A model generated the notes under the pieces. It searched no databases, was not told where the DNA came from, and worked only from the letters and a program-made list of their open reading frames with translations. Positions 7,444-42,744 of a DNA stretch of 64,000 bases are shown one piece after another. This stretch comes from a virus (lineage: Duplodnaviria; Caudoviricetes), in the IMG/VR virus record IMGVR_UViG_3300014204_007089, positions 1 through 64,000 of that record. The stretch is one strand, 5' to 3'. Both the position numbers and the translations under genes were made by a program. Numbering within the stretch: the first letter of the stretch is position 1; each line of letters opens with the position of its first letter.

Positions 7444-7495
7444 TATTATTTCTCCAAATTAATTTACCAAAGAATTTGCTATTTTTAATTCTCAT

Positions 7496-22690: not shown

Positions 22691-22738
22691 GTGAACTACC
22701 CTAACCTAAAAATAATGGCTTCTTGCACATTATGTTAA
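22691..22738 (+). mobile_element. ~50-bp hairpin repeat copy 4
   Basis: GTGAACTACCCTAACCTAAAAATAATGGCTTCTTGCACATTATGTTAA; terminal TTAA supplies the stop of 22735..23166. Confidence 0.6.
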
Positions 22739-23225: not shown

Positions 23226-23276
23226 GGCAATTCATTCCTCATCTAAAGGAAATGGACTTCTTGCACGTTAAGTTAA
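23226..23276 (+). mobile_element. ~50-bp hairpin repeat copy 5
   Basis: GGCAATTCATTCCTCATCTAAAGGAAATGGACTTCTTGCACGTTAAGTTAA; terminal TTAA supplies the stop of 23273..24970. Confidence 0.6.
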
Positions 23277-24978: not shown

Positions 24979-27306
24979 CTATGACTTATCCTTTGATATA
25001 TCTTGATTACTAAAACGAATCTTGTTAATTCCGTCAAACGGAATAAATTTAAATTCATTAATCGGAATTCTAGTAATATTTCCAAAACCATCAGTAATTT
25101 CAATATTATTACCAACAACATTTCCATAAACAGTATTACCATTATTATCAATATATACGGGTACTAATCCATCAATAATTGGACCATAACCATCAGCATA
25201 TGAATGTATAATAGAAGTAGCATCAACAAATTCATATTCTAAAATCTTTTCAATTATAGAACTTTGTTCATTAATAGACTCTCGATTTATAACTTTACTA
25301 ATAGATTCTTCTTTTATATACGCCGTCAATTCTCCTTTACCAGCAGTTTCACTTGTTAAAGTAGCAATAAAGTTATTATAACCATCAAATACAAATTCAG
25401 ATATTTTGCCAAATGTTGGAATTGCCGTTACAATTCCTGATAAACAGTTTGCAATTTCAGCTGTAATACCAGCTGTTAATAAAGTTCCACTTTTATCTTT
25501 CAAACGAATAGTAACATCTATATCTTTTTTAACAAATTGTAAATCTGTTGATATTTCAAAATCACTATTAAATCTATCTGCTGCAGCTGTTGCTGCACGA
25601 CAATAAAAATCAGTACAATCATTTCTTAAATCATTTAATGCTGTTACTGTTGTATTTTGAAATTCTTTAGCTGATTCTTCATTAATAGCACTTCTAAATT
25701 TTTCTAATGCTGCAGCAATTGTTCCTACAGTACCAGTTCCACTTTTTCTATCAGGATTTAAAGTACCAATATTAGGTAATTCTCCAACTTTATCAAAAAC
25801 ACTTCTTAAATCGTTAAACTCAGCATTAAAAACAGCAGATTCTATCGCTAAATCAGGTTGACACATAAGTGTTATTAATTTCCTATCAATTAAAACCTCG
25901 TGAACATACCTAAAATTATATGAAATATCATATATATAATCACTATCATCAATACTTGGAATCGAGCTGGATATAGCTTCTTTACCAAAAAATGTCTCTA
26001 ATGTTGCAGGTTTTCCATTAATAAAATATTGTTTATACCCATCTGCTGTTGTAGTATCAAATTCCCAAACACTTCCACCACCAATAAATATACTTCCTGA
26101 AGTAATAGTATTATCTACTTGATTATCCCATCGATAAGGATATTGGGTTGGTTTATATCTTACAATAAGATCTCTAATATTAAATTTTCTATATCCATCT
26201 AAATCTGCTGGATTTCCAAAAAGACTAGGGTTTACTCCAACATTCATATCTAATAAATATGGAACTCTAAAAGTATTAGCAGTACTATCATATGATTCAC
26301 CTTCTGGCCAATATGTAAATCCAGATGGTGATGGAGTAATAATATCTAAAAATTTAAATCCTTGTGGATTATCATCAATAAATTGAAAACGTTGTGGTCT
26401 TAATGGTGATAAACTATTAACACTTAAAAATGAAAATTCAGAAGGAATTACAGTATTAAGTTGTCGTTGATAAATAAAACGACCAGTTTCAGATCTTGGT
26501 CCGTCCGGACTATAATTTGATATAAAATCTGGACAAAAATCTTCTGTACAACAAATACCAAGAGCTTGTTGCACATCTTCAGGATCTCCACCTCCACTAC
26601 CCCTAGCACATACTCCACGACCACCAATATCCATTAATGGTCTTATTATTGCAAATAATGCACCCACTGCTAATAAAATAGCCATTAATTGTTCTAATAA
26701 ACATATTAGATTTGACATCTTTTGTATGCATTTTAAGATTGAATCTTCATCATGTTTATGTATAGCATCAACTAATACTATAATATTTGCTATTAATTGT
26801 TTAATATAATCAATAATTCTTTGTATTATATATTCTATTAATGCTATTAATAATAATATTAAAGCTAAAATCATTAATATTAAAGCGAGCCAAGGAAATA
26901 AAGCTAAAAATGCTGGTAAACATGTTTTAAATAAACGTTTTACAGCCTTTACAGTTGACCATGGATTCATAAGAGCACAAACAATATCAATTATACATAA
27001 AATAATATTAAGAAGTGCTTGTATAAATTTATAAAAAGCAAGAAATGGTGCTAGTTTATTTAATAAGTTTGCTATAGCATCCCATGCTGATTTTGAAAAA
27101 TCATCAAAATTTACATCAAGTCTAATACCTGTAGGAAGTAATGCAAATAATCTTTCCATTAAATCTAATAAATCTTCAGGTCCAAATGAAGGATTTACAT
27201 CAGGAAATGGTGTTTTTGGAATAGAAAAAGGATCGCCCATACCAGGTAAATGTGGTCCAGGACCAACTATAATGTCTATACTATTTTTTGATGGATCACA
27301 AACCAT
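24979..27306 (-). CDS. Baseplate-region protein with hydrophobic helices and an Ig-like C-terminal region
   Basis: AFLALFPWLALILMILALILLLIALIEYII hydrophobic run; DVTIRLKDKSG...FIATLTSETAGKGELTA invasin/Ig-like; 4 DGY. Confidence 0.55.
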   Translation of the reverse strand: MVCDPSKNSIDIIVGPGPHLPGMGDPFSIPKTPFPDVNPSFGPEDLLDLMERLFALLPTGIRLDVNFDDFSKSAWDAIANLLNKLAPFLAFYKFIQALLNIILCIIDIVCALMNPWSTVKAVKRLFKTCLPAFLALFPWLALILMILALILLLIALIEYIIQRIIDYIKQLIANIIVLVDAIHKHDEDSILKCIQKMSNLICLLEQLMAILLAVGALFAIIRPLMDIGGRGVCARGSGGGDPEDVQQALGICCTEDFCPDFISNYSPDGPRSETGRFIYQRQLNTVIPSEFSFLSVNSLSPLRPQRFQFIDDNPQGFKFLDIITPSPSGFTYWPEGESYDSTANTFRVPYLLDMNVGVNPSLFGNPADLDGYRKFNIRDLIVRYKPTQYPYRWDNQVDNTITSGSIFIGGGSVWEFDTTTADGYKQYFINGKPATLETFFGKEAISSSIPSIDDSDYIYDISYNFRYVHEVLIDRKLITLMCQPDLAIESAVFNAEFNDLRSVFDKVGELPNIGTLNPDRKSGTGTVGTIAAALEKFRSAINEESAKEFQNTTVTALNDLRNDCTDFYCRAATAAADRFNSDFEISTDLQFVKKDIDVTIRLKDKSGTLLTAGITAEIANCLSGIVTAIPTFGKISEFVFDGYNNFIATLTSETAGKGELTAYIKEESISKVINRESINEQSSIIEKILEYEFVDATSIIHSYADGYGPIIDGLVPVYIDNNGNTVYGNVVGNNIEITDGFGNITRIPINEFKFIPFDGINKIRFSNQDISKDKS

Positions 27307-27314
27307 ATATTATC

Positions 27315-29363
27315 CTATATTTTTACACCAGGTGTTCTCTCAACTTCTCTAGGAGGTGACATGCTGCTATAAAATGTAATATTCTCAGCATCAAATGTTA
27401 TATTATTCTTAACAGATTTAAACCTCATCTCCCCTTCACTAACTATATCAATTCTTTGTGGTGTATGAATTTTTATTCCTTCATTATCAACTCTTATAGT
27501 ATGAAAACTTCCAGAATTCCATATCCTAATATCTATTATTCCATCTCTTGCTGTGTTATTATAATTAACTGTAGGGAATCTTGAATCATCATTAATTGTG
27601 GGACCACCCACTTCCAAAAATAAATCTCCATCTAATGAAGCAGAAACAGATCTATTATATTTATCTCTTCCAATTGCAGATACTATACCACCAGCACAAT
27701 CCAACCATAAACTTTGACGATCAACTGTATTAGCACCAATACTTAAAGACAAAAACCCATCAAGTGAAAAAGTACCACTCCTACCACCAGCATTAGCTCC
27801 ATTACCAGCTACGATAACTTCCGAAGATACAATATCACTAACTGGAGGTATTAAATTTAAAATACTATTTGGATATCCTCCCGTACCACCATCACTTCCA
27901 TATATATTCTCAAATTTATGTGAAAATAATACATTATTTATATAATGATAAGCTGTTCCTAATTGTATTATATTATCTTTATTATTTCTATCAGTTGGAG
28001 ATAAATAACTATTTAATTCATCTTCATTACTCTTTAAAGTTACACACCCCTTTCCATAAGGTTCTAAAAATACATCTTTCTTATCTGTACCATTGCGTAA
28101 AAATTGCCCACGATCAGCTGATTTTTGAGATTTAGAATCACCTTGCTCAAATCCTTTCAAATTAGAAAAATTTTCATGACGTACTAATAATGGAACGTTT
28201 CCTACCTCACTAGAACATGGAACATTAATTTTAAATTGACCTTCTTTATCTATATCTAATTGAAATCTGCTTCTATTTCTAACATAATCAGTTGTATCTT
28301 TATAATCCGGAAGATTGAAATTATTTTTTCTAGCATTTAATTCAAAATGATATGCTACACTTTTTCTTAATTGCTCTAATAATTTTTTAAAAACAATATT
28401 TTTATTATCTTCAGTTGATTTTCTAAATGATAATGAATCTATTAAACCATTTGGTAAAATATTTCTATTTAAATCTAAAATATTTCCATAAATATCAACA
28501 ACAGTACCAATTATAATTTCTAACAAATAATTTGGTTGATCTAAACTAAGACTTAAAGTATCTGTAATACTGCTTTTTCTTTGGTAAGATTTTGTACTAG
28601 AAACATCTTCTCCAGCATATAATCTTTCCTCTTCTATATCACTTGTATAACTAAAACTATCTATAAATTCATAGAACATCGAACGATTTTCTGTTAAACC
28701 AGGATTTCTATTTCCACCTACCGAAACAGATACATTAGTAAATGGATCTAATCCTATATGTCTTAAACCTGCGCTATAATTATGTCCATATAATGAAGAA
28801 CCATCTTCTCCACGAGTACTACTTGATTTATCATCTCTTTTTATTGGACCAATTGTTTGTCTATGAGCTTCTGAAAAACCCATCAATTGATTAAATTTAG
28901 TACTCCACATATTATGAACAGGATCTGCTTGAGTAAATTGAAGTGAATCTCCTTCTAATATTCCTTGATTAGGATCAACTATAAAACTAATATCATTTTG
29001 TACAAGTGTTACCCATCTTCCAGGTCCTAATTTGGTACTTGAATCAACTCTCCTTTTACCACTTGGAGAATATGACCTTGTCATTTTTTGTTGATTATAA
29101 TTTAAAAAAACAAATTCTCCACCTTGACTAACAGTAACAAAAATATTTGTACCTATCTCTGGATAACCTAAGGCAACTTCCCCATGTATACCCATCCAAG
29201 CAGCTGGCCATTTTACTGGATACTGTATATCAGTATCTGTATGAGGAAGATTAACATAAACAATACCATTTTGTATATCAACACTCTTAATAACACCTCG
29301 CACAGGTATACCAATTACTGAACCTATGTTACCTATGTTTGTTTGTTTTTGAATTTTACTCAA
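27315..29363 (-). CDS. Baseplate central spike (gp5/gpV-like)
   Basis: N-terminal OB-fold-like GVIKSVD...GYPEIGTNIFV; C-terminal beta-strand repeats (IRVDNEGIKIHT..IDIVSEGEMRFKS); follows the hub gene. Confidence 0.6.
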   Translation of the reverse strand: MSKIQKQTNIGNIGSVIGIPVRGVIKSVDIQNGIVYVNLPHTDTDIQYPVKWPAAWMGIHGEVALGYPEIGTNIFVTVSQGGEFVFLNYNQQKMTRSYSPSGKRRVDSSTKLGPGRWVTLVQNDISFIVDPNQGILEGDSLQFTQADPVHNMWSTKFNQLMGFSEAHRQTIGPIKRDDKSSSTRGEDGSSLYGHNYSAGLRHIGLDPFTNVSVSVGGNRNPGLTENRSMFYEFIDSFSYTSDIEEERLYAGEDVSSTKSYQRKSSITDTLSLSLDQPNYLLEIIIGTVVDIYGNILDLNRNILPNGLIDSLSFRKSTEDNKNIVFKKLLEQLRKSVAYHFELNARKNNFNLPDYKDTTDYVRNRSRFQLDIDKEGQFKINVPCSSEVGNVPLLVRHENFSNLKGFEQGDSKSQKSADRGQFLRNGTDKKDVFLEPYGKGCVTLKSNEDELNSYLSPTDRNNKDNIIQLGTAYHYINNVLFSHKFENIYGSDGGTGGYPNSILNLIPPVSDIVSSEVIVAGNGANAGGRSGTFSLDGFLSLSIGANTVDRQSLWLDCAGGIVSAIGRDKYNRSVSASLDGDLFLEVGGPTINDDSRFPTVNYNNTARDGIIDIRIWNSGSFHTIRVDNEGIKIHTPQRIDIVSEGEMRFKSVKNNITFDAENITFYSSMSPPREVERTPGVKI

Positions 29364-29430
29364 ATTATCACCTAACTATTCAACTGTACTATTTAACTGT
29401 TTATATATTATATTGGAAAATTATTAATTT

Positions 29431-32400
29431 TTAAGAAATTCTTCCAATTTGGCGAGCTTCATCAATTGAAGCATTTGACTGTTGACCATATTCACTTCCA
29501 TCATCTGATTGACTTATTGTTTCTTTAACATCTTCATAATCTACAAATAAATCTAAAATACAACTAGCTAATATATTTGAAAATTGTGTTGGTTTAATAT
29601 CTGATGCTGACATTACTCTGGTAGCTGCAATAGCTGCACTAGAAGGTCCTTGTGTATTTGGTTCAGGAGATTTGTTTTCTGGATAAGTACGACGTCTAGT
29701 TTGTTGTTTGGAATTTGTTAAATCAACCTCTTCAATTATAATATCTTCAGCATTAATACCAAATACTTTTTGATTTCCTGTACCATCTTGCATAAAAACA
29801 TCAGCACTAAGACCATCAGGTGTCATTTTTTCTGGAGAAACAAGCCATTCAAGAACAGCTGTTGCTAATTGAGCCATGTAAGTAGCTGTATCTTCTTGTG
29901 TTTTATAATATACTATTTTTATTCTTGTTTTATTAGTACCAAATCCAGTTTGATTAAAATTACCACTTATAGCAAATAATGTATTTGTAAGAATATTCTT
30001 ATTTCTTTCTCCATTCCTACCACTTAATAATTTTACCATAGGTTCTGTGTTACTAAATAATATATTATTTTCACTTATAGATTCTGTAAATGAAATTTTA
30101 TTTTCAATTGTTAAAGCTCCTAATGAACGAGAAGCTCCTAACATCTGATATCTTTCATTTCTAAATCTACCAGTAAAACCACGGCTATTATATAAAATTT
30201 TACCAACAACATCTAACATAGTTGGAATATATTCACCTGAATTGTGACCATATGAAAGATCTAATGTTGTATTTAATTGCCCATAACTAAAATTATGTTG
30301 CACACCTCTAACATAAAATAATAAATTTCTATCTTCAATATATACAACATCACCAGGTTGATAAAACTCATTATAACCAGTAATTTGAACAGAACCTTGT
30401 AAAATATTTTCACGTGCCTGTAACAATGTAGCATATGCATATGGTGCGCATTGACTATCTGGATCACTTAAAAATGGAGCTTCAATAGATGTAGGCACTT
30501 TAAAACCATATTGATACCACATATCATAATCTACAGCTATAGCAGAAGACATTAGATTACTTTCGTTCTTTCCATCAAAATTTGTTTTAAAACTACTTCC
30601 AGAATCAACAAGACCTTCAGCAAACATTCCATTAACACTTATCATAGTGTATTGAGGAGCATTTTCAGAAATAGTCAAACTAACAATACGATCAGCTGTA
30701 ATAATAAAACGACGACCAGAATTAACTCCTAAATTATCATCATTTTCATATTCAATCATATGTTCTAAATATTCTGGAATTTCAGTATGTCTATTTAAAT
30801 TTGGAGTTGCTATAGAACGACCTACAGCATTAGAATTAGTTGGTTCATCTAAATTACTCAAACCACCACTAAAAATGTTTTGATTTTTTTCATCAGGTGT
30901 ATTGATAGATAAACCATCTACAAAACTTCTCATAGCATTTGAAAGAGAATATAATAATGTTTGTCTTTGTGATATTAAACTTCCAATTTGTAAAAATAGA
31001 TTTAATCTATCACTTCTACTTACTGCATGTGTTTCAAGACGACGAAATCTATCATTTGTAAAAAGATCACTAAGATTTTTTGGTTCAAGTCCAGTTTTAT
31101 TCCTTAGTTTTATTCTAATTTTTTCAACTATTGTAGCTTGTTGATCTGGATCAACTGTAGTATTAAATTCTTTATTAGCTTTGATTTGAGTACTAATAGT
31201 AAATAATCTATTCTTTTTTAAATATATTGAAATATTTTGTTGGTATTTACTAAGTTGTTCTTTTGCATCTTTAACTGATGTAAGTCCTTGAGAATTCGCA
31301 TGTTCAGAATATTCCGGACGAATTTGTGTTAATATAGCTGGAATATTTTGTATACCTCCATCAAATGTAGTTAAAAATCCAAAGTCCGCAGATGAATATG
31401 TTCCTATATTTGAACCACATACTATTAATTTAATAATTTCATCATCATTATTAGCGCCCAAAGCAACCGCTCTAAGCCTTATTTCATCTTCTATAATTTC
31501 TATTTGAGTTAATAAAGCCTTACTCTGATTAAAATATAATGATTCAAGAAAATCTGGAAATACTTTAGTTCCTTTTGTATCGCGATCTTTAAACATCTTA
31601 TAAAAAACAGAACTTGGTACTTTATTATATCCAGGTGGACGTGCTTCTATATGTCCTTGTGTATTTGCAAAGACTTCAAAACCAAGTAATTTTTTAACAT
31701 TATTAATCTGATCTGCAACAGATGAATATGGACTATCAAATAATTTAATAGTACTTCCAATCTTTCTTTCAAATGCCATTAAATCAAAATTTTTATCATA
31801 CTGATCATCTACTATAAATAAATTTTGATCTTCATTAGCTTTTACTTTCCAAAATCTTCTAGCTGTAAATCTAAATAAATTTCTTCTTAATTCTAATTCA
31901 TCTCTTTGTTTTTGAGCATTACTTGAACTAGCATCATTAACAGATGTTAAATTAGTATTTACATCTGTTCCCATAATCGTTAAACCAATTTCTTGATTGT
32001 TTGATTCTTTATATTTTTTATCAAAATATCCTTGAAGATTATTTATTTGTTCATCAATACTATCAAGTCTTCTTTTAGCATCAGTTGCTGCATCTGTTTC
32101 TATTGTATTAGTGGAAGAATTTGATAATACAGATTGTCCAGCTTCATTTTTAGTGAAAAGACTATTTAAATCTACATTAAAACCATCAGCTAACATCATT
32201 ATTTCATCTTCAACAGAAGCTCTTTCTCTAAGTAATTTTGTTAATTGTTCATTGTTCGAAACAGCATCTAATCTGGTTTGTGTAATTAAAGTGTTAATAG
32301 ATGGATTCATAACTAATTTTTTATAAGGTATAAAATTACCCCAAATACAATTAGTTTTTTCAATATCATTTAATAAACCTTGAATATAAGTAGTTGCAGC

Positions 32401-34575
32401 TGTAATATTACTAATATTATCATTTGACCCTAATGAATTACCATTTGCAATTGCAGCTTTTAAGAAAGTATCATAGTTATATGGTTGACCAGTAACTAAC
32501 ATAGATATTACATTCATAACATCTTGACCGGCAAATGGTTGTGGTGTTAATAATACTGCTCTATTTTCTTCTGTAGAGTTTTCTGGTTTTGAAAGCCAAG
32601 TTAAAGTTTGAATTCCTTGTTTCCATCTATAAACTAATCCATTTGGTGCATGAAGTACATTTCTAAATTTACCAAAAGTAATTTCACTTGTTTGTTGTTT
32701 TAAATTTTCTTCTGTAACAGAATTACCTTTTTCTGGTCCACTTCCATAAGTTAATAATCCTGTTTGAATTAACATTTTATTTTCTGGTAATAATTGAGGT
32801 AAGTCTCCTTCAGTCGTATCTGTTAAAGCAGTTCCAGTTGAAGCATCTAAACTAACATCAAATGGAGTTAGTGGATCGTAAATACTAGCATTAAGAACAT
32901 CAGCAGATGGTTGAAAATTTATATACCCTTGAGAAAAATAAGCAGAATTATCATTACAAGTTACTGAAACTGTCCACTTACCATCTGACCACGTTCCAAC
33001 CACACCTTGTCCCATTGCTCCAACAAGACCTGTAAAAATACAAGGTCCTGTAGGTTGACATGTAATATCTTGTTTAAATTGTCTCCATAACCATTTTGGA
33101 AAACCAGCACCAACCATACTGGAACGCTCTATATCTTCAAATGACATTATAGTTTCAAGTTTGCCATTTGTTTGCATATCCCCTACAGTATTATTTATAT
33201 TTTTTAATATAGTATCAAATCTATTTATTAAAGAAAATCCACTTTCATTTTGTTGTTTTTGAAATCCGCCAGGTAAACGATCATCTTCACTAGTCCTACT
33301 TGACATGAAAATTGTAATTACATCCATAGGTTGAATTACATATTTCCCATTAAAAAATAATCTCATTCTATTACGTGCATAATTAATTTCTGCAGATGCT
33401 TGATTTAATTCGGCTTTACTTGTTTGATTATATCCTAATAGAGTAAAAATATTACCTATAATTTGTACAAATTTCTTTTGTTCAGATTTTGTTAATTGAT
33501 TATTTATACTTACATTAATTGAATTATATCCTTCTAAAAATTCAGGTTCAATTTCTACATTGCCACCTGAAATTGTATTACCAATAGAAACAAAAACACT
33601 TGATAAAACTTCTCCTACACTTCCATCTTCTCCTGATAAACCAGTAGAATATTGAAATCTTATATCAGTACTTTCATCATCAAGAATCGCTCTTACTCTT
33701 TTAGAAACAACTGTTCCTGGACTAATTTTAAATGTAATATTGCTAGCATTCCTAGACCTTCTTTCAACTGCTAACTCTCCTTGTAAATCTCTTATTGTAT
33801 TTTCTAATTCTGTTTTGGTAAATTTAAAAAATCCACCTTCTCTGTATACATTTGTAACATCAGTTAAAGCCTGATCAATATCTTGTTCAGTAATTGTTAA
33901 TAAATTATAAGGATCTTCAAGTGTTAAATTAGCACTACCTCCTCCCCATTCTACAGATGTTTTAGTACTAATACTAGAAACAATAGTTAATTCCATTGTT
34001 CCTGGACCTTCTCCAACTTCATCAGAAAAAGAAGCATCCCAATTAGTTGTCCAACTAGTAAAATCAGTTGGCATAGAATAAGATAAAACTTTTCTAAGAG
34101 TTTCTATAGCTGATTTTGTACTAGCATCAAGTGAAAATAAACCAGTAGCTCCACCCAATGTATCTAAACTATCTATTAAATTAATAAATGAAGGTCCTAA
34201 AAATGTATTAAAACTACCACTATCAATTGCTAATTTTTCAATTTTAGTAAGTTTTTCATAAGCTGATATTAATTTGCATTTATTTTGAAATAATTTTTTT
34301 GATGCAGCAATTAGTATTCTTTCTTTTTTTTCTAAATAATCTAATCTAGAATTATTTACTAAAGAAGAAAACATCCTTTTTTTTACTACAACATAAATAT
34401 CTGGTTGTTGAAATAATATAGATCTTTTTCTTGGTCTTAAATTTCGTATAAAACCATTTTCTATATAAGACCTTTCAGCAGATTTATCGCCTAAAACTTT
34501 AACAGTACCTTTTGTATTTTCGCCAATTCCAAATTGATCGTTTATAATATTACCAAGTGAAGATAAGAAATTCAT
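29431..34575 (-). CDS. Baseplate hub protein (gp27/gpD-like, enlarged)
   Basis: GSANLTLEDP, IQPMDVITIF, FTGLV, FEVFANTQGHIEARPP, GSVQITG..PGDVVY...FYVRGVQHNFSYG..TTLDLSYG. Confidence 0.7.
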   Translation of the reverse strand: MNFLSSLGNIINDQFGIGENTKGTVKVLGDKSAERSYIENGFIRNLRPRKRSILFQQPDIYVVVKKRMFSSLVNNSRLDYLEKKERILIAASKKLFQNKCKLISAYEKLTKIEKLAIDSGSFNTFLGPSFINLIDSLDTLGGATGLFSLDASTKSAIETLRKVLSYSMPTDFTSWTTNWDASFSDEVGEGPGTMELTIVSSISTKTSVEWGGGSANLTLEDPYNLLTITEQDIDQALTDVTNVYREGGFFKFTKTELENTIRDLQGELAVERRSRNASNITFKISPGTVVSKRVRAILDDESTDIRFQYSTGLSGEDGSVGEVLSSVFVSIGNTISGGNVEIEPEFLEGYNSINVSINNQLTKSEQKKFVQIIGNIFTLLGYNQTSKAELNQASAEINYARNRMRLFFNGKYVIQPMDVITIFMSSRTSEDDRLPGGFQKQQNESGFSLINRFDTILKNINNTVGDMQTNGKLETIMSFEDIERSSMVGAGFPKWLWRQFKQDITCQPTGPCIFTGLVGAMGQGVVGTWSDGKWTVSVTCNDNSAYFSQGYINFQPSADVLNASIYDPLTPFDVSLDASTGTALTDTTEGDLPQLLPENKMLIQTGLLTYGSGPEKGNSVTEENLKQQTSEITFGKFRNVLHAPNGLVYRWKQGIQTLTWLSKPENSTEENRAVLLTPQPFAGQDVMNVISMLVTGQPYNYDTFLKAAIANGNSLGSNDNISNITAATTYIQGLLNDIEKTNCIWGNFIPYKKLVMNPSINTLITQTRLDAVSNNEQLTKLLRERASVEDEIMMLADGFNVDLNSLFTKNEAGQSVLSNSSTNTIETDAATDAKRRLDSIDEQINNLQGYFDKKYKESNNQEIGLTIMGTDVNTNLTSVNDASSSNAQKQRDELELRRNLFRFTARRFWKVKANEDQNLFIVDDQYDKNFDLMAFERKIGSTIKLFDSPYSSVADQINNVKKLLGFEVFANTQGHIEARPPGYNKVPSSVFYKMFKDRDTKGTKVFPDFLESLYFNQSKALLTQIEIIEDEIRLRAVALGANNDDEIIKLIVCGSNIGTYSSADFGFLTTFDGGIQNIPAILTQIRPEYSEHANSQGLTSVKDAKEQLSKYQQNISIYLKKNRLFTISTQIKANKEFNTTVDPDQQATIVEKIRIKLRNKTGLEPKNLSDLFTNDRFRRLETHAVSRSDRLNLFLQIGSLISQRQTLLYSLSNAMRSFVDGLSINTPDEKNQNIFSGGLSNLDEPTNSNAVGRSIATPNLNRHTEIPEYLEHMIEYENDDNLGVNSGRRFIITADRIVSLTISENAPQYTMISVNGMFAEGLVDSGSSFKTNFDGKNESNLMSSAIAVDYDMWYQYGFKVPTSIEAPFLSDPDSQCAPYAYATLLQARENILQGSVQITGYNEFYQPGDVVYIEDRNLLFYVRGVQHNFSYGQLNTTLDLSYGHNSGEYIPTMLDVVGKILYNSRGFTGRFRNERYQMLGASRSLGALTIENKISFTESISENNILFSNTEPMVKLLSGRNGERNKNILTNTLFAISGNFNQTGFGTNKTRIKIVYYKTQEDTATYMAQLATAVLEWLVSPEKMTPDGLSADVFMQDGTGNQKVFGINAEDIIIEEVDLTNSKQQTRRRTYPENKSPEPNTQGPSSAAIAATRVMSASDIKPTQFSNILASCILDLFVDYEDVKETISQSDDGSEYGQQSNASIDEARQIGRIS

Positions 34576-34583
34576 ACTTTACC

Positions 34584-34590
34584 ATATATC
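34584..34590 (-). promoter_or_regulatory. GATATAT candidate promoter element (representative of 8 intergenic copies)
   Basis: Also at 19294, 22648, 23181, 39392, 56734, 59447 and 60537, each 8-55 nt upstream of a minus-strand start codon. Confidence 0.45.
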
Positions 34591-34604
34591 AGGTTTAACC
34601 TAAA

Positions 34605-35543
34605 TTAAATCGGACGATAACTTGTCAAAGCAGCATCAACAGTAGCTACTACTCTTTTTATTATAGGAGATGCTGAATAACTTGTCTTTGATGAAGGATC
34701 TCTCAAAGTTCCAAATGAATATGGTCTACCAAATAATGGATCTGTATATGATGGACCATGAACAGCACTTCTATGCCAAGGCATATAGTTTAATCGTAAA
34801 CCACGCTTTTGTGTAACTGTAAAATTAATTGAATAATCAAATAATCCAATATTATCAGAACTTTCAGTAACTCCAAAACTTATAAAAAACCCTCTAAATA
34901 CCCAACCAGACCAATACATCTCAGTTTGAAATGCTATTGATGCTAATGTAGGTTGTTGTATTGCCGGATCTGCACTTCCAGTATTTATAACAGAATCAAC
35001 TGTATCAAACATATCATCAATACCTTCTGCTATAAAATTTCCAAAACCAAGATCAACATTTGCATAATTACTAGAATTATTTTTTCTAGCAGCTTCAGCA
35101 GCCATTGCTAAAGCATCCATGGAAACTTGTTCGTTTCTATAAATATCTTCAAGAACATTTATACCCTCAACACCAGAAGAACCTGTTGTACCACGAATAA
35201 CAATTTGTCCTAAATCTTCTCCATAATATTGTATTGAATACCCACCACGTGTTCTTACTGGTGAGGTTATATGTTTCTTATATGAATATTCTATATTTTT
35301 AGGATTTATATACATTTCAACAATACCAGTCTCTGGAAGAAACCAACGAACCATATTTCTTTTTGCAATAGCATCACGTTCATTTGCAATTTGAGCTTGG
35401 CGTACAGCACTTCCTGTTGGAGGTGGTATTACAGCTAAATCACTAAAGCCCTGAGCGTTTCCACCACTTCCTCTAACAACACCTCTGGCATTACTGTACG
35501 AACTGTCAATTCTATTATTTATTTGTTCTAGAAAGTCACCCAT
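34605..35543 (-). CDS. Tail tube initiator / baseplate-tube junction protein
   Basis: MYINPKNI...RTRGGY.IQYYGEDL..I.IRGTTG, FRGFFISFGVTES...FDYSINFTV; lies between tape measure and hub. Confidence 0.6.
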   Translation of the reverse strand: MGDFLEQINNRIDSSYSNARGVVRGSGGNAQGFSDLAVIPPPTGSAVRQAQIANERDAIAKRNMVRWFLPETGIVEMYINPKNIEYSYKKHITSPVRTRGGYSIQYYGEDLGQIVIRGTTGSSGVEGINVLEDIYRNEQVSMDALAMAAEAARKNNSSNYANVDLGFGNFIAEGIDDMFDTVDSVINTGSADPAIQQPTLASIAFQTEMYWSGWVFRGFFISFGVTESSDNIGLFDYSINFTVTQKRGLRLNYMPWHRSAVHGPSYTDPLFGRPYSFGTLRDPSSKTSYSASPIIKRVVATVDAALTSYRPI

Positions 35544-35563
35544 TTAACACCTCAATTAAATCA

Positions 35564-38308
35564 TTAACCATTAGCATTTCCATTATAAGGACCTGAGCTA
35601 GTATTTAAATTCATATTAGTTACAACAGTTTTTATAACTTCCTCAAGACCATTAAGATCTTCAATCTTAAATGAAACTGTAAGATCTAATGGATCAAATT
35701 TAAAAGTAGAAGGTTCTATAGAACTCCTTTTTTCTTCAGTTTCTTTTCTAGTACCCTTAGCTATTTCTTCAGCTACTGATTCTCTATAGGGCATAGGAGG
35801 AACCGATGTTGATTTTATTTCTTCAACTCTATTTTTATTAATAATAGAAGCTAAATGTTGTTGTAATGTTTTATTAGCTTCTATTTGTGTTCCAGTTTCA
35901 GCAGTTTTGCGTTCACTTTCTGTTGAAGTCTTTGTTACTGGTAAAGATTCTTTTCCTTTATCTATTTCACTAATTGGTTTAGCTGATGTTAATTTTTCAA
36001 ATTGATTAACCGCTTTATCATTATAACCTTTTGTTTCAGTTGTTATATTTGGAGTAATACGACTTGTCTTGTCAATTTTTTCAGCAGATATAACTTCTGG
36101 AAGACCAGGAGTTGTAATAGGACTTCCTTTTTCTGCAATAAATCCAGAAGTTCTTGGAGCAGTTTCTTTAACTGTTAATGATGGTAAATTTGCAACCGGA
36201 GGAATTCCAGCACCAGGTATAGTGGATGGTAATGTAATTGGTTGTTCTGTTATAGCAGATGTTTGTGGTAATGTAGTTGGTTGTGTTATATTAACTGATG
36301 GTGATATAACTGGTGTAGTTTCTTTAGTTAAAGATATTTCTTCAGGTTTTGGTGATGTTGGCAATATATTACCACCTGGTTCTGGTGGTGGTAATCCAGG
36401 AACTGTTATACTTGTAGGTGATGACTTTTCACTAGTTGGCATTCCAGGTATCCTAGGTTCTGATAATTTTAAAACCATTTCTTCTGGAACTATTTTTGTA
36501 CTTTCGGTTTTTGAAATTATTTCTTCTTCTTGTTTACCAGTATATCTTCCAAATACTTTTTTTGCCCAATCTATTGCTTCATTAAAATCTTCAGTAAGAG
36601 ATAAATGTTTTTTATCAGTTCTTGACTCTGTGGTATCTATAAATAAACCACCTTTTGCAGCATCTCTAGAAGCTGCATCAGCTGCTATCATTTCAAGATT
36701 TAAAGCCGATCTTAACTCAATATCTGTACTTTTCATCATTTCTTGATATACTAAATCTTGTGTTAAACGTATCTCTTCAGCTTTTTGATATACTTGCATT
36801 ACAGAATTGCGAAGAGGATCTTGTTTTTGAGTACCAAGATCTATCGCCTGTTCAAGAGCATCTGTTGTTTCGTCTTTTTCTCCTCTTTCAAGTTTTCCAA
36901 TTACACCTTCCTTCATTGCATTTAAAACTTGAGATGCTTGTCTTTCATCATTGATACCAGTCATTTGTGATATCATTTGCATCTGCTTCAAATATTCACT
37001 AGATAAACCAGGATTTTCAACAGCTTCTTTTAATGTAACAATTTGTCCACCAAATTGGCTTTCAATACCTCTAAGAGTCTTAGCCATTACCTCTTCAAGA
37101 TTACCAGTTTGAAGTGCATACTCCATCTTCAAACCACCAGCTAATCCACCTGGTCCTCCAGTAGCTCCTGATATAAAAGCCCCACGTGCAAGATCAAATT
37201 TTTGAACACCAGCTGTAAGACCTGTAATTACTTTTTGTATTGCATCAGGTGATAATTTACTATCGTCAAATGCCTGATCAAATGCTTTTACAACTTTAGT
37301 AGCAGCATCAGTATTATCACCAAGAATATTAAAAGATTTTGCAATATCTAATACAGTTGTAACAAATGCTCCACGTAATTTAGAAGAATCTCCTGCAAGT
37401 CTATATATATTAGATAATGATTCAAAAGCTGCTTGTCCACTAACCCCCATATTAGTATATAATTCATTATATTTTACAGCAACTTCTTCTTGAGTTTTAC
37501 CAAAAGCAGCTGCTACTTTTGAAGTAGCAACCATTTGATTCATTTGCACACCACCAACAGTTATATTTTCACTTAATGAACCTGGAATGGCTTTTAATTT
37601 ATCTTGAAGTTCATTCATAGAAGCTACAGTTTGACCAGTAGCTTGAGCAGACTTTAAAGATAACATTACATAATCATTATAATGAGTATTTAAATCTCTA
37701 AAACCTCTGCCAGTAGAATCAAGAGTTTCACTAAAACGACCTTGAGCAGCTGCCGCTTCTAACACTTTACTTTTTATAAGATATGCAGCATCAGCTCCTT
37801 TAACCATTTCTGCAGTTCTTTTAGGAAAAATTTGTCCAACAGCTTCAAATGCCGTGCTTATTTTTGATCCAGCTTCAACTCCTGCTTGCCCAATATTTCC
37901 AATACCATTAACAGTATCTGGTATTATTCCTAAAAATCTCTCCAATGATATAGCTGCCATAACTCCAGCTGTTTCTGAACCATGAGACGCAATACCCATT
38001 TGTGAAGTAAGTTTTTCATATTCTGTAGTAATTATACTAACAGCTTGTTTACCCAATCTTCCAAAAACTCCAAATTTATCAAAAGCTTCTTCACAATTTT
38101 CAGTAACTTTTTTTAAACCTTCGGCCATAGCTGAAAACTGTGTACCAGATTCAGTACCTAAAAGTTTTAATACTTCCGAAGTATTAGTAGTTGTTTGCCC
38201 TAAATTTTTCAAACCTTCAACAAATTTAGTTACAGAATCAAAAGCATCGCCACTTAATGTTTTAGCGAAATCTATTACTTTTTCAAGAGAAATTACGTCA
38301 TCAGCCAT
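35564..38308 (-). CDS. Tape measure protein (candidate)
   Basis: Ala/Gly/Gln-rich helical N-terminal ~590 aa downstream of tube and chaperones; Pro/Thr-rich C-terminus. Confidence 0.65.
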   Translation of the reverse strand: MADDVISLEKVIDFAKTLSGDAFDSVTKFVEGLKNLGQTTTNTSEVLKLLGTESGTQFSAMAEGLKKVTENCEEAFDKFGVFGRLGKQAVSIITTEYEKLTSQMGIASHGSETAGVMAAISLERFLGIIPDTVNGIGNIGQAGVEAGSKISTAFEAVGQIFPKRTAEMVKGADAAYLIKSKVLEAAAAQGRFSETLDSTGRGFRDLNTHYNDYVMLSLKSAQATGQTVASMNELQDKLKAIPGSLSENITVGGVQMNQMVATSKVAAAFGKTQEEVAVKYNELYTNMGVSGQAAFESLSNIYRLAGDSSKLRGAFVTTVLDIAKSFNILGDNTDAATKVVKAFDQAFDDSKLSPDAIQKVITGLTAGVQKFDLARGAFISGATGGPGGLAGGLKMEYALQTGNLEEVMAKTLRGIESQFGGQIVTLKEAVENPGLSSEYLKQMQMISQMTGINDERQASQVLNAMKEGVIGKLERGEKDETTDALEQAIDLGTQKQDPLRNSVMQVYQKAEEIRLTQDLVYQEMMKSTDIELRSALNLEMIAADAASRDAAKGGLFIDTTESRTDKKHLSLTEDFNEAIDWAKKVFGRYTGKQEEEIISKTESTKIVPEEMVLKLSEPRIPGMPTSEKSSPTSITVPGLPPPEPGGNILPTSPKPEEISLTKETTPVISPSVNITQPTTLPQTSAITEQPITLPSTIPGAGIPPVANLPSLTVKETAPRTSGFIAEKGSPITTPGLPEVISAEKIDKTSRITPNITTETKGYNDKAVNQFEKLTSAKPISEIDKGKESLPVTKTSTESERKTAETGTQIEANKTLQQHLASIINKNRVEEIKSTSVPPMPYRESVAEEIAKGTRKETEEKRSSIEPSTFKFDPLDLTVSFKIEDLNGLEEVIKTVVTNMNLNTSSGPYNGNANG

Positions 38309-38670
38309 TAATCAACCACCTTATGCTTTTTCTTTTTTTTACGTTTGCTTTGTTGTTCAGTTTTAACAATTTCTTCATGAAGATTCTTTGCAGTTTCTTC
38401 TGAATCAGTTGTTTCAAAATCAGGTTTATCAGATTTAATAATCTTTTGAGCCATTTCAGGATTAGAAAAAGACCCAATAAATATTGCTTGATTCCTTAAT
38501 TTCTCAGCTTCTAATTCCATATCATGAATCCAACTCTCATACAACCATACTCTTAAATATGGGTTAATATTCTCATAAAAAGGATCATCTGGCAATTTAC
38601 CGAAAGTTTTAACTAAAAATCTAATAAATTGATGCTCTGGAGTTCTAACTACTTTTATTGATTGCCTGTA
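38308..38670 (-). CDS. Tail assembly chaperone, second (T-like) segment
   Basis: Frame stays open upstream of the TTG at 38595 (VVRTPEHQFIRFLVKTFGKLPDDPFY) and overlaps the end of 38645..39337. Confidence 0.55.
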   Translation of the reverse strand, partial: YRQSIKVVRTPEHQFIRFLVKTFGKLPDDPFYENINPYLRVWLYESWIHDMELEAEKLRNQAIFIGSFSNPEMAQKIIKSDKPDFETTDSEETAKNLHEEIVKTEQQSKRKKKKKHKVVD

Positions 38671-39337
38671 CTACCTCCTTAGCTTGCTCTTGGGTTCTTG
38701 GAATATAACCATCATAAGTTTCTGAACTCAACTCATCAAACTTATTAAATAAATGATCTATTAATGCTCCATCCATTTCAGATATCAAATCTTTTTTAGC
38801 TTCAATTTGTTCTTCATAAGATGAATCAAATGTACCTAATACAAGATCTACTAATTGACCATCAACCATATATAATGAATAAGATAATGCTACAAGCTTC
38901 ATATTATATAAACTTGTTGGTTTGAATGTAGTTCTTCCATCTGATAATACAATTCTTTCAGCTTGCTCAACTGCTTGTGCATAACAATTTTGCTCAAATG
39001 ATTTTAACGATCTTAAAGTAAAAACAGTTGTAATATCATCATTACCAACCGATACATCTTTTGTTTTTCTACCAATGCCGGTAATGATATCAATCCTACG
39101 CATTGCTTCTTTGCTAGATTTTTGTTCTTGTTGTTCTGATTGCTCCATAGCCATTTGTCGTCTACGCGCAACTTCTGCAGGATTAATCATTTGTCTAGTA
39201 GGTTGTTGCGGTAACTCATTTGGTATATTTTCATAATTTTCTTGTCCATCTGGAATACTCCAATTACGAACTGATGGTTGTTGACCAGATCCACTACGTT
39301 GTTTATTACTTCCAATAGCACTATGTATATTTGCCAT
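38645..39337 (-). CDS. Tail assembly chaperone (G-like)
   Basis: Canonical position between tube and tape measure; FTLRSLKSFEQ...LSYSLYMVDG...IDHLFNKFDEL. Confidence 0.6.
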   Translation of the reverse strand: MANIHSAIGSNKQRSGSGQQPSVRNWSIPDGQENYENIPNELPQQPTRQMINPAEVARRRQMAMEQSEQQEQKSSKEAMRRIDIITGIGRKTKDVSVGNDDITTVFTLRSLKSFEQNCYAQAVEQAERIVLSDGRTTFKPTSLYNMKLVALSYSLYMVDGQLVDLVLGTFDSSYEEQIEAKKDLISEMDGALIDHLFNKFDELSSETYDGYIPRTQEQAKEVVQAINKSS

Positions 39338-39414
39338 ATTTTATTATATCCTTATTTATAAATCTAAAAAATTTAGATCTTCTCTATCTTAATATATCAA
39401 GAAAATTAAACAAG

Positions 39415-39443
39415 AAAACCCACAAATTTATAATGTGGGTTTT
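39415..39443. terminator. Intrinsic terminator-like hairpin downstream of the tube gene
   Basis: AAAACCCACA-9 nt-TGTGGGTTTT, with A/T runs on both sides. Confidence 0.7.
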
Positions 39444-39468
39444 ATTATTTTAATTAAAATTTTAATTA

Positions 39469-40134
39469 TTATGCTGACTCAACCGCATTAATTAGACCAG
39501 CTGCATCTAGAGCACCTCGTCTCTTACCAGTATCAGCTTGTTGTTCAAAGGGATCTGTAAATATAGAACGAAGTTTACGAGCCGAAGTAGCTGATCCTGC
39601 ATATGCAGAATTTCCATCAGTAAGATAAGAAAATATTTGTTCAGCTTCCCAACCCATATCTTCAACAATAACAAAATCACCAGAGTTATATGTTACATCA
39701 ATTTTATTAATCCACACATTTTTAATCTCAGTTGTAATCATATGACCTGTAATACCACTAAGACTGGCATTGTTAGAATCTTCTTCTGCTGCAAATATAT
39801 CAAATACTAAAATATCAAATGGAACACGTTGTGCACATACATGAACAAATCCACGAGAAAAAGCTGCTGCAATTCTTAGATTATCAAATCTTGTTCTAGT
39901 ACAACTGCCTGAAATACTTGTTGAAGACTTTGGAACTGAATCTACATGACCATCTGTTCCTACCTCATCAATCATTGCAATTTGACGACTTTCAGAGATT
40001 GATAATTTAGTAACGGCACCAACAGGATTACCATCTACACTGATTATAATATTTGTACTAACACCTGTTCTAGTAGCATTACGACCAGTTGAACTTGTTA
40101 ATTGAGATTCTGTGTGTGGACTGTAATTTACCAT
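39469..40134 (-). CDS. Tail tube protein
   Basis: 221 aa directly downstream of the sheath; IISVDGNPVGAVTKLSISESRQI..IDEVG, PFDI, IKNVWINKIDVTY...IVEDMGWEAE. Confidence 0.8.
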   Translation of the reverse strand: MVNYSPHTESQLTSSTGRNATRTGVSTNIIISVDGNPVGAVTKLSISESRQIAMIDEVGTDGHVDSVPKSSTSISGSCTRTRFDNLRIAAAFSRGFVHVCAQRVPFDILVFDIFAAEEDSNNASLSGITGHMITTEIKNVWINKIDVTYNSGDFVIVEDMGWEAEQIFSYLTDGNSAYAGSATSARKLRSIFTDPFEQQADTGKRRGALDAAGLINAVESA

Positions 40135-40269: not shown

Positions 40270-42744
40270 TTAATCTAAACGCCCAACATTAATTGCAATG
40301 AAAATCCAATTAGTAGGATATGTAGGTTGTACCGCTACTGATACATTCCACTGTCTTGGCTCAACTGAATCTTTATTTACTACCAAACCATCATATGCAG
40401 TAATTAATCTTTGTTGTATAAATGACTTCATTAATCCTTGAGCTATTGAAAATAATGTAGCTTTCATTGTTATACTTTCGGCTCTTCCAATATAAGGTAA
40501 AAATGCTCTGCGCATAGTTTTGGAAATATTATCTCTAATAAATACAATACTAATTTCTTCTTCTGTAGCTTCAAGACTAATTGTAGTTGTCTTTCCCCAT
40601 ACAACCTTTCCTCCACCAGCTACTGGTGTTAACAATGTAATACCAGATTTAGAAATATTTTCTTGAACTAATGGAGCATACATCTTATCTCTTAAAATAG
40701 AAAATCCAGATAAAGTCTTATTAGTTAATGGTTCTTGAATTGCAGTATTACCAGAAAAATATCCTGCTGCAGCTGCTGCAATAAAGAAACCATCCATAAG
40801 CTCATTATTAGAACCAGCTTGTATAACGATCTGATCTGGATAAAAATATACAACTCTGTAACTATCTCCAAAAGCATTTTGTACATCATAATTTGTTAAA
40901 TCTTCAGTAATTCCATCTAGAATTTCAGAAACATCATCTCCTTGAATTCCTTCTAGAATACCAATATCTTCAACAGCAGCATCTTGTGTACCTAGTACAT
41001 TTGCAGGAGTTAATCCACTTATTGCTCCGGTTAACAATACACGTTCTTTTCTATTTCTGATATTACTCATGGTTTCGACATGAACTTTACCATTTTGTAA
41101 AATAACACTAATTGTTTGACTTGGAAGTGGTACTACTATGTCTACTTCAATCTTTTCTGCTGAATCATAAGCTTCTACCCAACCAGCATCAAAGAAATCT
41201 GCATCATTTGTATCTACTATAGTTACTCTTAAACTATCACCAGCGCTTAATACAATATCATCAGTTATTAATATTCTACAACTTTCTGTTAAAGGATTTA
41301 ATACAAAGAAATCTACACCAGTTTCAGTTATACCAAACATTGGTGATAAACTTTCTAATTGTAATATACCATTTATAACTGATACTATATTACATTGACC
41401 ATCATTTCCACTTGTTGAATTTTCAATTTGCAAATTCTTACCAGAATCCTCACTTCCAAATTGAACATTTGCACTATATAATGTTGCAGTTGTTGTACTA
41501 GTAACAACTAAATAACCATCATATCCAGTTTTTTCAACAGCATCATCTACAATCACAGTATAAGAATAATCATAAGCAGCACTAGTAATAAAAGATTCTG
41601 GATCATCCCTAAAATCTTGATTATAAAAATCAACTTTATTTGGAATAATTTGAGTTTCTACTCCGGATGAAATACTTGTTATAAAGAAGTTAATATTAGA
41701 ATCAACATCTGGTACAATATTTAATGGAAGTTCAAATATAAATTCTTCAGGATCTGTATTTCCAACAGCTGATTCTACTAATGTATAAGATATACGTCTT
41801 GGAATAGATGGTTTTGCTTGTATAGCAAAAACACCTGGACAACCATTTGCAAATGCTAATTGAGAGCCTAGAGATAATCTATTTTCAGCAGTTGGTTGCC
41901 CATGTTTTGCTACTAAAACATTTAGATCTGTAAAGAATTCCGGATCGTTTAAATCTAATACTGAAATATATTTTGCAATTAAGTTATCACCTCTAACCAA
42001 CGGACCACCAGTAGTTTGAATTATAAAACTATCACCTTCTTGGAATGTTGATACACCTTCTAAAATAGAAAATCGTAAAATAGTATTACTAATAATAGAA
42101 CCATTAGATTGCCAGAAAATTTGATTTCCATATCCATCTAATATAATTCCACTTTCAGAACCACGTGCAATAAATTTAGCATATCCATCCATTGGATTTC
42201 CACCACCATCTCTTCTAACACTTGTACAGCGTATAGTCCAAGTTTCAGGTGGAGAATTAATATCTACTAATGTCAGATTAGAAATAGTACCATTCCCAAT
42301 ATTATTAGTAGAAGATTTATAATATTGATCACCTGTTTGTCTTACAAGTGAAGCTGGTTGCAATTCGATTTGCCCAGTTTCAGGATCTAATCTAGCATCA
42401 AATCTAGAATCAAATGATAATAAATCAACCACATCTTCTGACAGGTTAAGTTCAATTCCATTTTTGAACAATCTAGATCTATTTATTACAACAGGAGCTA
42501 CTACATCTTGTCCTATACCTAATAAAAAGTGACGTCCATCAGAGCCTGTTGAAGATGTGTAAGTTGGATTGAAACCATCGTTTCCGTTACCGTTAGCGGA
42601 ACCAACTAAGGTTTCTTCTTTCAAACCTTCACCTATAATTAAAGCAAGGCGAGAACCAGTTGGTACACTAACGCTACGCTGAAGCGTTTTTGTTTCTGAA
42701 TACACGCCTGGAACTACACTTGTTGCACCTGGAATATTGGCCAT
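40270..42744 (-). CDS. Contractile tail sheath protein
   Basis: N-terminal PGVYSET, AFANG, EPLTNK...VWGKTT...EEISIVFIRD, V.VAVQPTYPTNWIFI. Confidence 0.9.
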   Translation of the reverse strand: MANIPGATSVVPGVYSETKTLQRSVSVPTGSRLALIIGEGLKEETLVGSANGNGNDGFNPTYTSSTGSDGRHFLLGIGQDVVAPVVINRSRLFKNGIELNLSEDVVDLLSFDSRFDARLDPETGQIELQPASLVRQTGDQYYKSSTNNIGNGTISNLTLVDINSPPETWTIRCTSVRRDGGGNPMDGYAKFIARGSESGIILDGYGNQIFWQSNGSIISNTILRFSILEGVSTFQEGDSFIIQTTGGPLVRGDNLIAKYISVLDLNDPEFFTDLNVLVAKHGQPTAENRLSLGSQLAFANGCPGVFAIQAKPSIPRRISYTLVESAVGNTDPEEFIFELPLNIVPDVDSNINFFITSISSGVETQIIPNKVDFYNQDFRDDPESFITSAAYDYSYTVIVDDAVEKTGYDGYLVVTSTTTATLYSANVQFGSEDSGKNLQIENSTSGNDGQCNIVSVINGILQLESLSPMFGITETGVDFFVLNPLTESCRILITDDIVLSAGDSLRVTIVDTNDADFFDAGWVEAYDSAEKIEVDIVVPLPSQTISVILQNGKVHVETMSNIRNRKERVLLTGAISGLTPANVLGTQDAAVEDIGILEGIQGDDVSEILDGITEDLTNYDVQNAFGDSYRVVYFYPDQIVIQAGSNNELMDGFFIAAAAAGYFSGNTAIQEPLTNKTLSGFSILRDKMYAPLVQENISKSGITLLTPVAGGGKVVWGKTTTISLEATEEEISIVFIRDNISKTMRRAFLPYIGRAESITMKATLFSIAQGLMKSFIQQRLITAYDGLVVNKDSVEPRQWNVSVAVQPTYPTNWIFIAINVGRLD

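Follow-up and report, generated by a model that had tools for sequence, protein, structure and literature searches.

Che8-type mycobacteriophages reportedly encode soluble transferases near their structural genes that presumably modify virion proteins while these are still in the cytoplasm, with the capsid and tail-tube subunits said to be the targets and no sequon like Asp-Gly-Tyr (DGY) reportedly described. General O-glycosylation in Bacteroidetes uses the sequon D-(S/T)-(A/I/L/V/M/T), with Ser or Thr as the acceptor and periplasmic transfer from a lipid carrier, and the glycan shields of enveloped viruses are placed by the sequon N-X-S/T on exposed surfaces, where sites are gained and lost while their number is maintained. 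In the surface-layer (S-layer) glycoproteins of Paenibacillus alvei and Thermoanaerobacter, glycans are O-linked to specific tyrosines; no sequon is given in the review of these systems, and a membrane oligosaccharyltransferase probably carries out the transfer during secretion (PMC2943079). Here we describe DGY as a candidate surface tag in a 64,000-nucleotide stretch of viral DNA (Caudoviricetes; IMG/VR record IMGVR_UViG_3300014204_007089, positions 1 to 64,000; hereafter the window), in which the motif is enriched in proteins assigned to the periphery of the virion and absent from those assigned to the central axis of its contractile tail.

The DGY pattern resembles each of these systems in part. 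As in the Che8-type phages, phage transferases (predicted here) would alter the particle surface, but here the capsid protein and the tube are tag-free, the candidate acceptor is Tyr and the modification is putative. With the Bacteroidetes system, DGY shares a minimal three-residue, Asp-first motif with no wider consensus that is scattered over many unrelated surface proteins, although it has Gly at the acceptor position and Tyr after it. The candidate Tyr sites would lie, like those of S-layers, on a protein lattice facing the environment, yet S-layer sites are few per protein and fixed, whereas DGY sites turn over. Enveloped-virus shields offer the parallel of a short, surface-confined sequon with site turnover and differ in chemistry, in their host-encoded machinery and in virus type. 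The closest cultured relative, phage G (NC_023719; capsid protein 54% identical), has a homologous tail module, sharing the sheath core, tube, tube initiator, gp25-like protein and Baseplate-J protein, and also has a decoration gene upstream of the capsid gene; unlike the phage studied here, it has a shorter sheath (579 versus 824 aa), no DGY excess and no Gmd-family gene. Full-text literature searches returned no description of a DGY or Asp-Gly-Tyr motif in phages.

DGY as a sequence signal

The window comprises the first 64 kb of a 106,130-bp single-contig phage record with a guanine-cytosine (GC) content of 27.5% and nearly all genes on the minus strand. DGY was the strongest tripeptide outlier in this genome, with 67 occurrences observed against 17 expected under a first-order Markov model (z = 12; the next tripeptide reached z = 5.2), and it was also the top outlier in a 336-kb relative, G005 (z = 10.8). 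On the 106-kb contig, DGY was confined to the structural block at 9491-65503 and to a fibre gene at 104509-105915. The nucleotide pattern GAYGGNTAY had 58 copies on the coding strand, of which 56 were in frame, and none on the opposite strand; the choice of Gly codon inside DGY followed general usage. A DNA-level motif was rejected on the basis of this strand and frame restriction and the ordinary Gly codons.

DGY separates peripheral from central-axis proteins

The original prediction held that the inner or injected tail components lack DGY and that the motif follows exposure on the outer surface. The open reading frames (ORFs) and counts of the window all agreed with the first part: the spike, hub, tube initiator, tape measure, tube and a 565-aa protein contain no DGY, nor does any ORF in the enzyme-coding region at 417-9395. 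The hub has exactly nine Asp-Gly (DG) dipeptides, none of them followed by Tyr, and a 2246-aa protein has exactly 27, of which 13 are DGY. In this genome alone, the inner proteins gave 0 DGY among 17 DG and the DGY-bearing virion proteins 66 among 142 (Fisher p = 9.6e-5; 5e-4 with tandem clusters collapsed), a comparison weakened by an outer class that is partly defined by DGY itself, the tests based on relatives being stronger.

Relatives were gathered by a search with the hub protein followed by one with a hub alignment as query, which yielded 79 loci with a hub identity of 31-67%; they belong to uncultured huge phages of 200-480 kb (CheckV completeness 49-78% at 209-336 kb). Across these loci, the central-axis proteins contained 9 DGY among 1,244 DG, versus 357 among 1,301 in the sheath, the 775-aa, 271-aa and 230-aa proteins and the Baseplate-J protein (raw counts). 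Kinship was handled by counting each distinct state (alignment column, next residue) once. After this collapse of ancestry, Tyr followed DG in 6 of 518 inner states (16.2 expected) and in 51 of 345 outer states (10.4 expected), and the Fisher test that had been suggested to compare the two classes gave p = 1.2e-15. In the outer proteins, Tyr after DG ranked first among 89 dipeptide contexts at 4.9 times expectation, the next reaching 1.47 times. Of 85 tabulated related loci, 79 showed no DGY anywhere in the inner set. The tag is retained in the outer proteins of almost all loci that have such proteins, and no lineage among the 79 loci from the hub searches has lost it. Enrichment in the outer proteins is thus beyond doubt.

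The inner proteins of the 26 closest loci contained DGF 48 times (2.2 times expectation) and DGH 20 times, and DGY not once (12.6 expected). DGF stood at about 2.2-2.6 times expectation in both classes, versus 0 (inner) and 16.7 times expectation (outer) for DGY. Active avoidance of DGY in inner proteins is no more than suggested by these data. We rejected an accumulation of DGY through fast evolution: the hub, tape measure and 565-aa protein (mean identities 39%, 29% and 31%) diverge faster than the sheath (55%) yet gain no tag.

Central-axis candidates and DGY-free baseplate proteins

The following genes comprise the five placed on the central axis and two further baseplate genes (565-aa and gp25-like) without DGY, with the counts for the window first and those for the orthologues in brackets.

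27315-29363, minus strand: central spike candidate, 682 aa; 5 DG, 0 DGY (69 orthologues: 7 DGY, 319 DG)
29431-34575, minus strand: baseplate hub candidate, 1714 aa; 9 DG, 0 DGY (86 orthologues: 2 DGY, 502 DG)
34605-35543, minus strand: tube initiator, 312 aa; Pfam PF23980 Phage_tail_tube_init, E 8.9e-5, below the curated cut-off; 0 DG, 0 DGY (82 orthologues: 0 DGY, 120 DG)
35564-38308, minus strand: tape measure candidate, 914 aa; 0 DG, 0 DGY (72 orthologues: 0 DGY, 147 DG)
39469-40134, minus strand: tail tube, 221 aa; 3 DG, 0 DGY (69 orthologues: 0 DGY, 153 DG)
23273-24970, minus strand: baseplate-module protein, 565 aa; 2 DG, 0 DGY (56 orthologues: 0 DGY, 90 DG)
22735-23166, minus strand: gp25-like sheath initiator, 143 aa; Pfam PF10934 Sheath_initiator, E 5.6e-6, below the curated cut-off; no DGY (51 orthologues: 0 DGY, 6 DG)

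The tail genes lie in the order of phage Mu, starting with the sheath, the tube, two small chaperone-position genes and the tape measure, continuing with the tube initiator, hub, spike and two extra genes (775 aa and 565 aa), and ending with the gp25-like, Baseplate-J, 2246-aa and 1015-aa dockerin genes. The spike candidate follows the hub and precedes the gp25-like gene, as in Mu, and a VIA search, weak and with a poor model, gave top matches enriched for central spikes (phi92 gp138 at Z 6.5, phiKZ, PVC, AFP and VgrG; range Z 5-6.5). It had no Pfam or PDB sequence match, and Pfam searches with 14 spike orthologues gave nothing meaningful. The hub candidate is syntenic with Mu gp44, and an ESM Atlas feature search placed GpP-like/Gp44-like baseplate clusters at ranks 23 and 27 (score 0.94), which we treat as a lead only; Pfam, PDB and hhalign gave no hub match. 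Comparison of the spike and hub profiles with Mu gp45 and gp44 by hhalign found no match, nor did PDB-sequence profile searches for the spike, hub, sheath, tube and 565-aa protein. AlphaFold2 models were poor, with pLDDT 46 for the sheath (14-sequence alignment) and 42 for the spike.

The tube initiator resembles phage G gp184. The tail tube matched the phage G virion proteins gp180 and gp179 by BLAST, and in the ESM Atlas 28% of the members of its nearest cluster are annotated as Phi812_tail_tube (feature score 0.97, structure TM 0.76). The tape measure is a candidate by composition (rich in A/E/K/T/S, 1.6% Tyr) and because its gene is flanked by the chaperone-position genes on one side and the tube initiator on the other; it had no family match. 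An antisense 225-aa ORF (36069-36746, plus strand) inside this gene is probably spurious. The 565-aa protein, which had no PDB or family match, is predicted from its DGY pattern to be inner or hub-associated. Among the few inner DGY sites in relatives, six of the seven in the spike fell at two adjacent alignment positions (about reference residues 447-451) in distant relatives, and both sites in the hub were exceptions.

Peripheral and DGY-bearing proteins

The sheath and the other genes whose products carry DGY are listed in the same way.

40270-42744, minus strand: tail sheath, 824 aa; DGY at residues 186, 203 and 409, all in insert regions (orthologues in related loci, raw: 134 DGY, 423 DG)
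42830-43645, minus strand: protein upstream of the sheath, 271 aa; one DGY, at residue 125 (45 orthologues: 40 DGY, 59 DG)
38645-39337, minus strand: tail-chaperone-position protein, 230 aa; one DGY, at residue 209 (66 orthologues: 16 DGY, 90 DG)
24979-27306, minus strand: baseplate-module protein, 775 aa; 8 DG, 4 DGY (60 orthologues: 129 DGY, 396 DG)
19349-22621, minus strand: Baseplate-J (gp6-like) wedge protein, 1090 aa; Pfam Baseplate_J, E 1.2e-12, residues 69-243; DGY at residues 635 and 672 only (orthologues in related loci: 38 DGY, 333 DG)
12516-19256, minus strand: peripheral baseplate or fibre protein, 2246 aa; 27 DG, 13 DGY, all in residues 826-1635; weak Laminin_G_3 match
9491-12538, minus strand: fibre-position protein with dockerin, 1015 aa; Pfam Dockerin_1, E 1.1e-6; 14 DG, 9 DGY
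43689-48305, minus strand: DGY-rich virion protein, 1538 aa; 16 DG, 9 DGY
51767-53377, minus strand: DGY-rich protein, 536 aa, with a putative "neck" label and weakly like phage G gp175; 13 DG, 5 DGY
57715-58098, minus strand: DGY-dense protein, 127 aa; 5 DG, 4 DGY
60596-64000, minus strand, running to 65503 past the window: DGY-rich protein, 1635 aa; 29 DG, 12 DGY

In the 271-aa protein, which resembles phage G gp177, the DGY column was filled in 16 of 16 close orthologues. The column of the 230-aa protein was filled only in the closer subclade (12 of 23 sequences), consistent with one inherited event. The 775-aa protein had no family match. The G005 orthologue of the 1538-aa protein has 10 DG, five of them DGY, and the orthologues of the 127-aa protein in three relatives have two or three DGY each. 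The C-terminal part of the 1635-aa protein matched PHROG 20658, "head decoration" (E 2.7e-13), and the product of the fibre gene outside the window, which contains a Peptidase_S74 chaperone domain, has DGY at all three of its DG.

Two further features touch these proteins. The type I dockerin of the 1015-aa protein is encoded at 10490-10690, and one of its calcium loops reads DGDGY. G005 also has, at 153456-169335, another gene block for very large proteins rich in DGY (1689 aa with 10 DGY; 1741 aa with 11 DGY), and no counterpart of it was detected on the contig of the window.

The split runs through the sheath and the Baseplate-J protein

Identity of the sheath is firm: PHROG tail sheath and Pfam Phage_sheath_1 matched residues 630-819, and in a VIA fold comparison residues 730-819 aligned with the C-terminal domains of sheaths from phi812, Mu and the Anabaena contractile injection system (CIS) (Z 9.1-8.6). 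We found that DGY was confined to two insert regions of the 49 orthologues, residues 101-250 (87 DGY among 106 DG) and 331-510 (37 among 122), which together gave 124 of 228. None occurred in residues 1-100 (89 DG), 251-330 (5 DG), 511-630 (5 DG) or 631-824 (59 DG), so that the N-terminal 100 residues, the two linkers and the C-terminal core together gave 0 of 158. In known contractile sheaths, the inner layer around the tube is built from the N-terminal strand together with the C-terminal domain, whereas inserted domains point outward, and we take the inserts here to face outward because of this architecture. The 579-aa phage G sheath aligns with residues 267-311 and 650-817; the stretch between these matches is about 230 residues longer in the 824-aa sheath and holds the tag cluster at 409-421.

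A similar gradient was present in 45 Baseplate-J orthologues, in which residues 1-250, the J domain, had no DGY among 73 DG, residues 251-500 had 3 among 73 and residues 501-1090 had 33 among 160. The terminal parts of this protein, residues 2-288 and 928-1087, align with phage G gp188; a large insert separates them, and much of the later region is insert relative to gp188.

Head proteins and the rest of the proteome

The 106-kb contig lacks the capsid gene. In G005 that gene was located at 46848-47888 (PHROG 2522, E 8.5e-78), and a 220-aa protein encoded directly upstream, at the position of the annotated capsid-decoration gene of phage G, gave 100 DGY among 225 DG. Portal homologues, located only via phage G gp14, gave 1 among 15. 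PF07068 (Gp23) had no match in five relatives, and Pfam searches with nine head-module proteins gave none, and thus pointed to no scaffold, protease or internal head protein. A 358-aa gene at 59452-60528 was rejected as the capsid protein, since it encodes a class V aminotransferase (Pfam E 3e-28), a non-virion protein within the structural block that contains no DGY. An HNH endonuclease gene (59124-59438) and a LAGLIDADG homing endonuclease gene (55568-56713) also lie within this block, and neither product contains DGY.

Outside a few multi-DGY ORFs, the rest of the proteome was at background in all four genomes counted (3 DGY versus 4.6 expected, 13 versus 12.7, 12 versus 9.1 and 18 versus 16.2). 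DGY was thus neither enriched nor depleted there, and genome-wide avoidance in non-virion proteins was not seen in these genomes. The relation between DGY content and virion position replicated among relatives, and non-virion proteins elsewhere were not DGY-rich, so the original prediction survives on both points.

Properties of the motif

No flanking consensus or extended sequon was found around DGY, and a shared repeat domain was rejected: the 83-residue segments around the motif were not homologous between proteins. The three positions were interdependent in the multi-DGY proteins, in which D preceded 49-62% of GY, G filled 52-78% of DxY and Y followed 34-47% of DG. Some sites were invariant at 35% identity, for example residue 203 of the sheath and residue 125 of the 271-aa protein, and others turned over; the alternatives in partly filled DGY columns were DGV, DGT and DGS, not DGF. 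These features fit a linear motif that is read by one trans-acting factor.

Glycan genes and comparison with phage G

The contig encodes a soluble glycan toolkit comprising Gmd, two epimerases, a C-methyltransferase, FkbM, two sulfotransferases and the glycosyltransferases GT11, GT10, three GT2 and GT4. The GT4 gene adjoins the fibre genes here and in three relatives, and the glycan cluster with GT4 was present in all four DGY genomes. In phage G, the tail module had 3 DGY among 39 DG, and glycosyltransferase searches returned only sub-threshold GT2 and GT1 matches.

Several other genes were observed in or near the cluster. The cluster is interrupted at contig positions 86925-88073 and 92041-93336 by two TnpB/Cas12f-like genes with OrfB_IS605 and TNB domains. 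A 216-aa protein without a Pfam family is encoded beside a sulfotransferase at 94624-95274; it had 48 homologue matches, in most tail-module loci of relatives, and in G005 its homologue directly follows the last fibre gene. It is possible that this protein is an accessory of the tag system. One GT2 glycosyltransferase (97600-98358) had a weak, sub-threshold match to the SseK/NleB protein glycosyltransferases (E 5.6e-4).

Elsewhere on the contig, a gene at 68150-72073 encodes a 1307-aa ribonucleotide reductase large subunit with an internal LAGLIDADG domain (residues 747-823), probably an intein, and the portal homologue of a relative, G001, is likewise oversized (1407 aa). A tubulin/PhuZ-like gene at 79121-80494 (Pfam Tubulin, E 3e-15) is kept in G005 with 57% identity.

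Discussion

The partition of DGY is very probably real and follows virion position. The proposal that the tag follows outer exposure stood with respect to the split between central axis and periphery, and did not stand as a complete rule, since exposure is insufficient: most relatives have no tag on the spike although its tip is exposed, and the major capsid protein is untagged. The head gave the same mixed answer, the decoration-position protein and the portal homologues behaving as anticipated and the capsid protein not. Exposure looks necessary, not sufficient, for the tag.

We propose that DGY is a three-residue tag on the sheath inserts, the later part of the Baseplate-J protein, the large fibre and baseplate proteins, the head-decoration-position protein and the distal fibre, and that it would be read in trans by a phage factor. 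The likeliest reader would be one of the soluble glycosyltransferases from the conserved glycan cluster, which lies next to the tail-fibre genes; by attaching a sugar to the Tyr hydroxyl, this enzyme may coat the outside of the particle. A sugar on the Tyr of DGY is favoured because the glycan toolkit is present here, while phage G has neither the tag excess nor Gmd. No tag is present on the central axis, the conserved cores of the sheath and Baseplate-J proteins, the capsid protein or the portal, presumably because nothing selects for it in these parts; inside the sheath a bulky adduct would also be likely to disturb packing, and it could impede movement through the tube and across the host envelope. 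As the best overall explanation, we give a context-independent tag on peripheral domains, read in trans and likely glycosylated, a probability of roughly 0.5. That the tag marks a covalent modification at all we consider finely balanced, leaning if anything slightly to the negative. The fuller version is tentative and less likely than not: DGY could be the acceptor sequon by which a hitherto undescribed system modifies tyrosines in the cytoplasm, through O-glycosylation that might use fucose-type sugars carrying sulfate or methyl groups. The system would coat only outward surfaces across the huge-phage clade, and the sequon would be selected against in parts that sit inside the sheath or pass through the tube.

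DGY might instead act unmodified, an exposed Asp-Gly turn presenting Tyr as a weak multivalent contact to glycans, metal ions or surfaces, as in adhesion, a role that would pay off solely on the particle exterior. Its peripheral, multi-copy and often tandem occurrence (32 of 112 spacings were 20 residues or less) is what such a role would produce, Asp with an aromatic residue is common in sugar-binding sites, and some sites lie in calcium-loop-like contexts such as the dockerin. Three residues without flanking consensus in unrelated folds, however, cannot make a defined binding pocket; the strict exclusion of DGF, NGY and EGY fits one reader better than generic stickiness, and the glycan cluster conserved alongside the motif would lack a target, so we regard this explanation as unlikely. 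A non-covalent docking motif, whereby DGY hairpins recruit a phage protein (for decoration, as cement or as a fibre) and only surfaces destined for decoration carry them, would account equally well for a trans-acting reader, context independence and the split by virion position, and small DGY-dense proteins such as the 127-aa protein do exist. It is nevertheless improbable, as the fibres and the decoration-position protein themselves bear most of the tags, no candidate binder was identified, and rapid gain and loss at non-homologous positions would be unusual for an assembly interface.

Two explanations dispense with a reader altogether. DGY could be a by-product, favoured in beta-rich accessory domains that are found only in peripheral proteins, without a link to exposure; DG often forms a two-residue beta-turn and occurs about twice as often in the outer proteins, and several DGY sites show no variation, as expected of a structural residue. 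Yet the hub and spike have hundreds of DG turns in which DGF is over-represented and Tyr is not, no other tripeptide behaves in this way, the contexts around DGY are unrelated and the homologous tail module of phage G shows no excess, all of which makes a by-product very improbable. Chance or composition has in its favour that Tyr, Asp and Gly (GGA/GGT) codons are AT-rich, in an AT-rich genome. It is already refuted, and its remaining probability negligible, given the deviation from the first-order Markov expectation, the ancestry-collapsed Fisher test (p = 1e-15) and the same pattern in relatives with 38-40% GC; the original argument that the split does not come from composition was thereby borne out, the pattern holding in 79 relatives and inside single proteins.

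Several observations weigh against the proposed trans-read surface tag. The major capsid protein, presumably exposed, had no DGY among 73 DG in 80 orthologues, and the 230-aa protein, encoded where a non-virion chaperone would be, has DGY in one subclade. Five or six distant relatives share DGY in one variable spike loop (around reference residue 451; L137, L140, L143, L145 and L169), which suggests a locally exposed site in the middle region of the spike. The inner deficit is modest after collapse of ancestry, at 0.37 of expectation (binomial P = 0.003; fourth lowest of 213 dipeptide contexts), and the contrast with phage G is one with a single outgroup. The hub and spike identities are weakly supported, by synteny together with weak fold or feature matches, and the physical exposure of the tagged parts is predicted from domain homology and gene order. 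The specific enzyme tied to DGY is a candidate only, and modification of the Tyr is putative.

For the huge-phage clade, these results mean that a three-residue motif sorts the proteins, and even the domains, of uncultured members into peripheral and inner classes. If DGY is a modification sequon, it would provide a defined acceptor motif for phage virion glycosylation and point to Tyr as the acceptor. The tag would then allow outward-facing virion proteins to be predicted from sequence alone, the 565-aa protein being predicted as inner and the 775-aa protein as outer. The writer of the tag would have to act before assembly, on free subunits, and tagging of central-axis parts would be expected to do harm. 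Phage G, with its homologous tail, provides a cultured, tag-free comparison.

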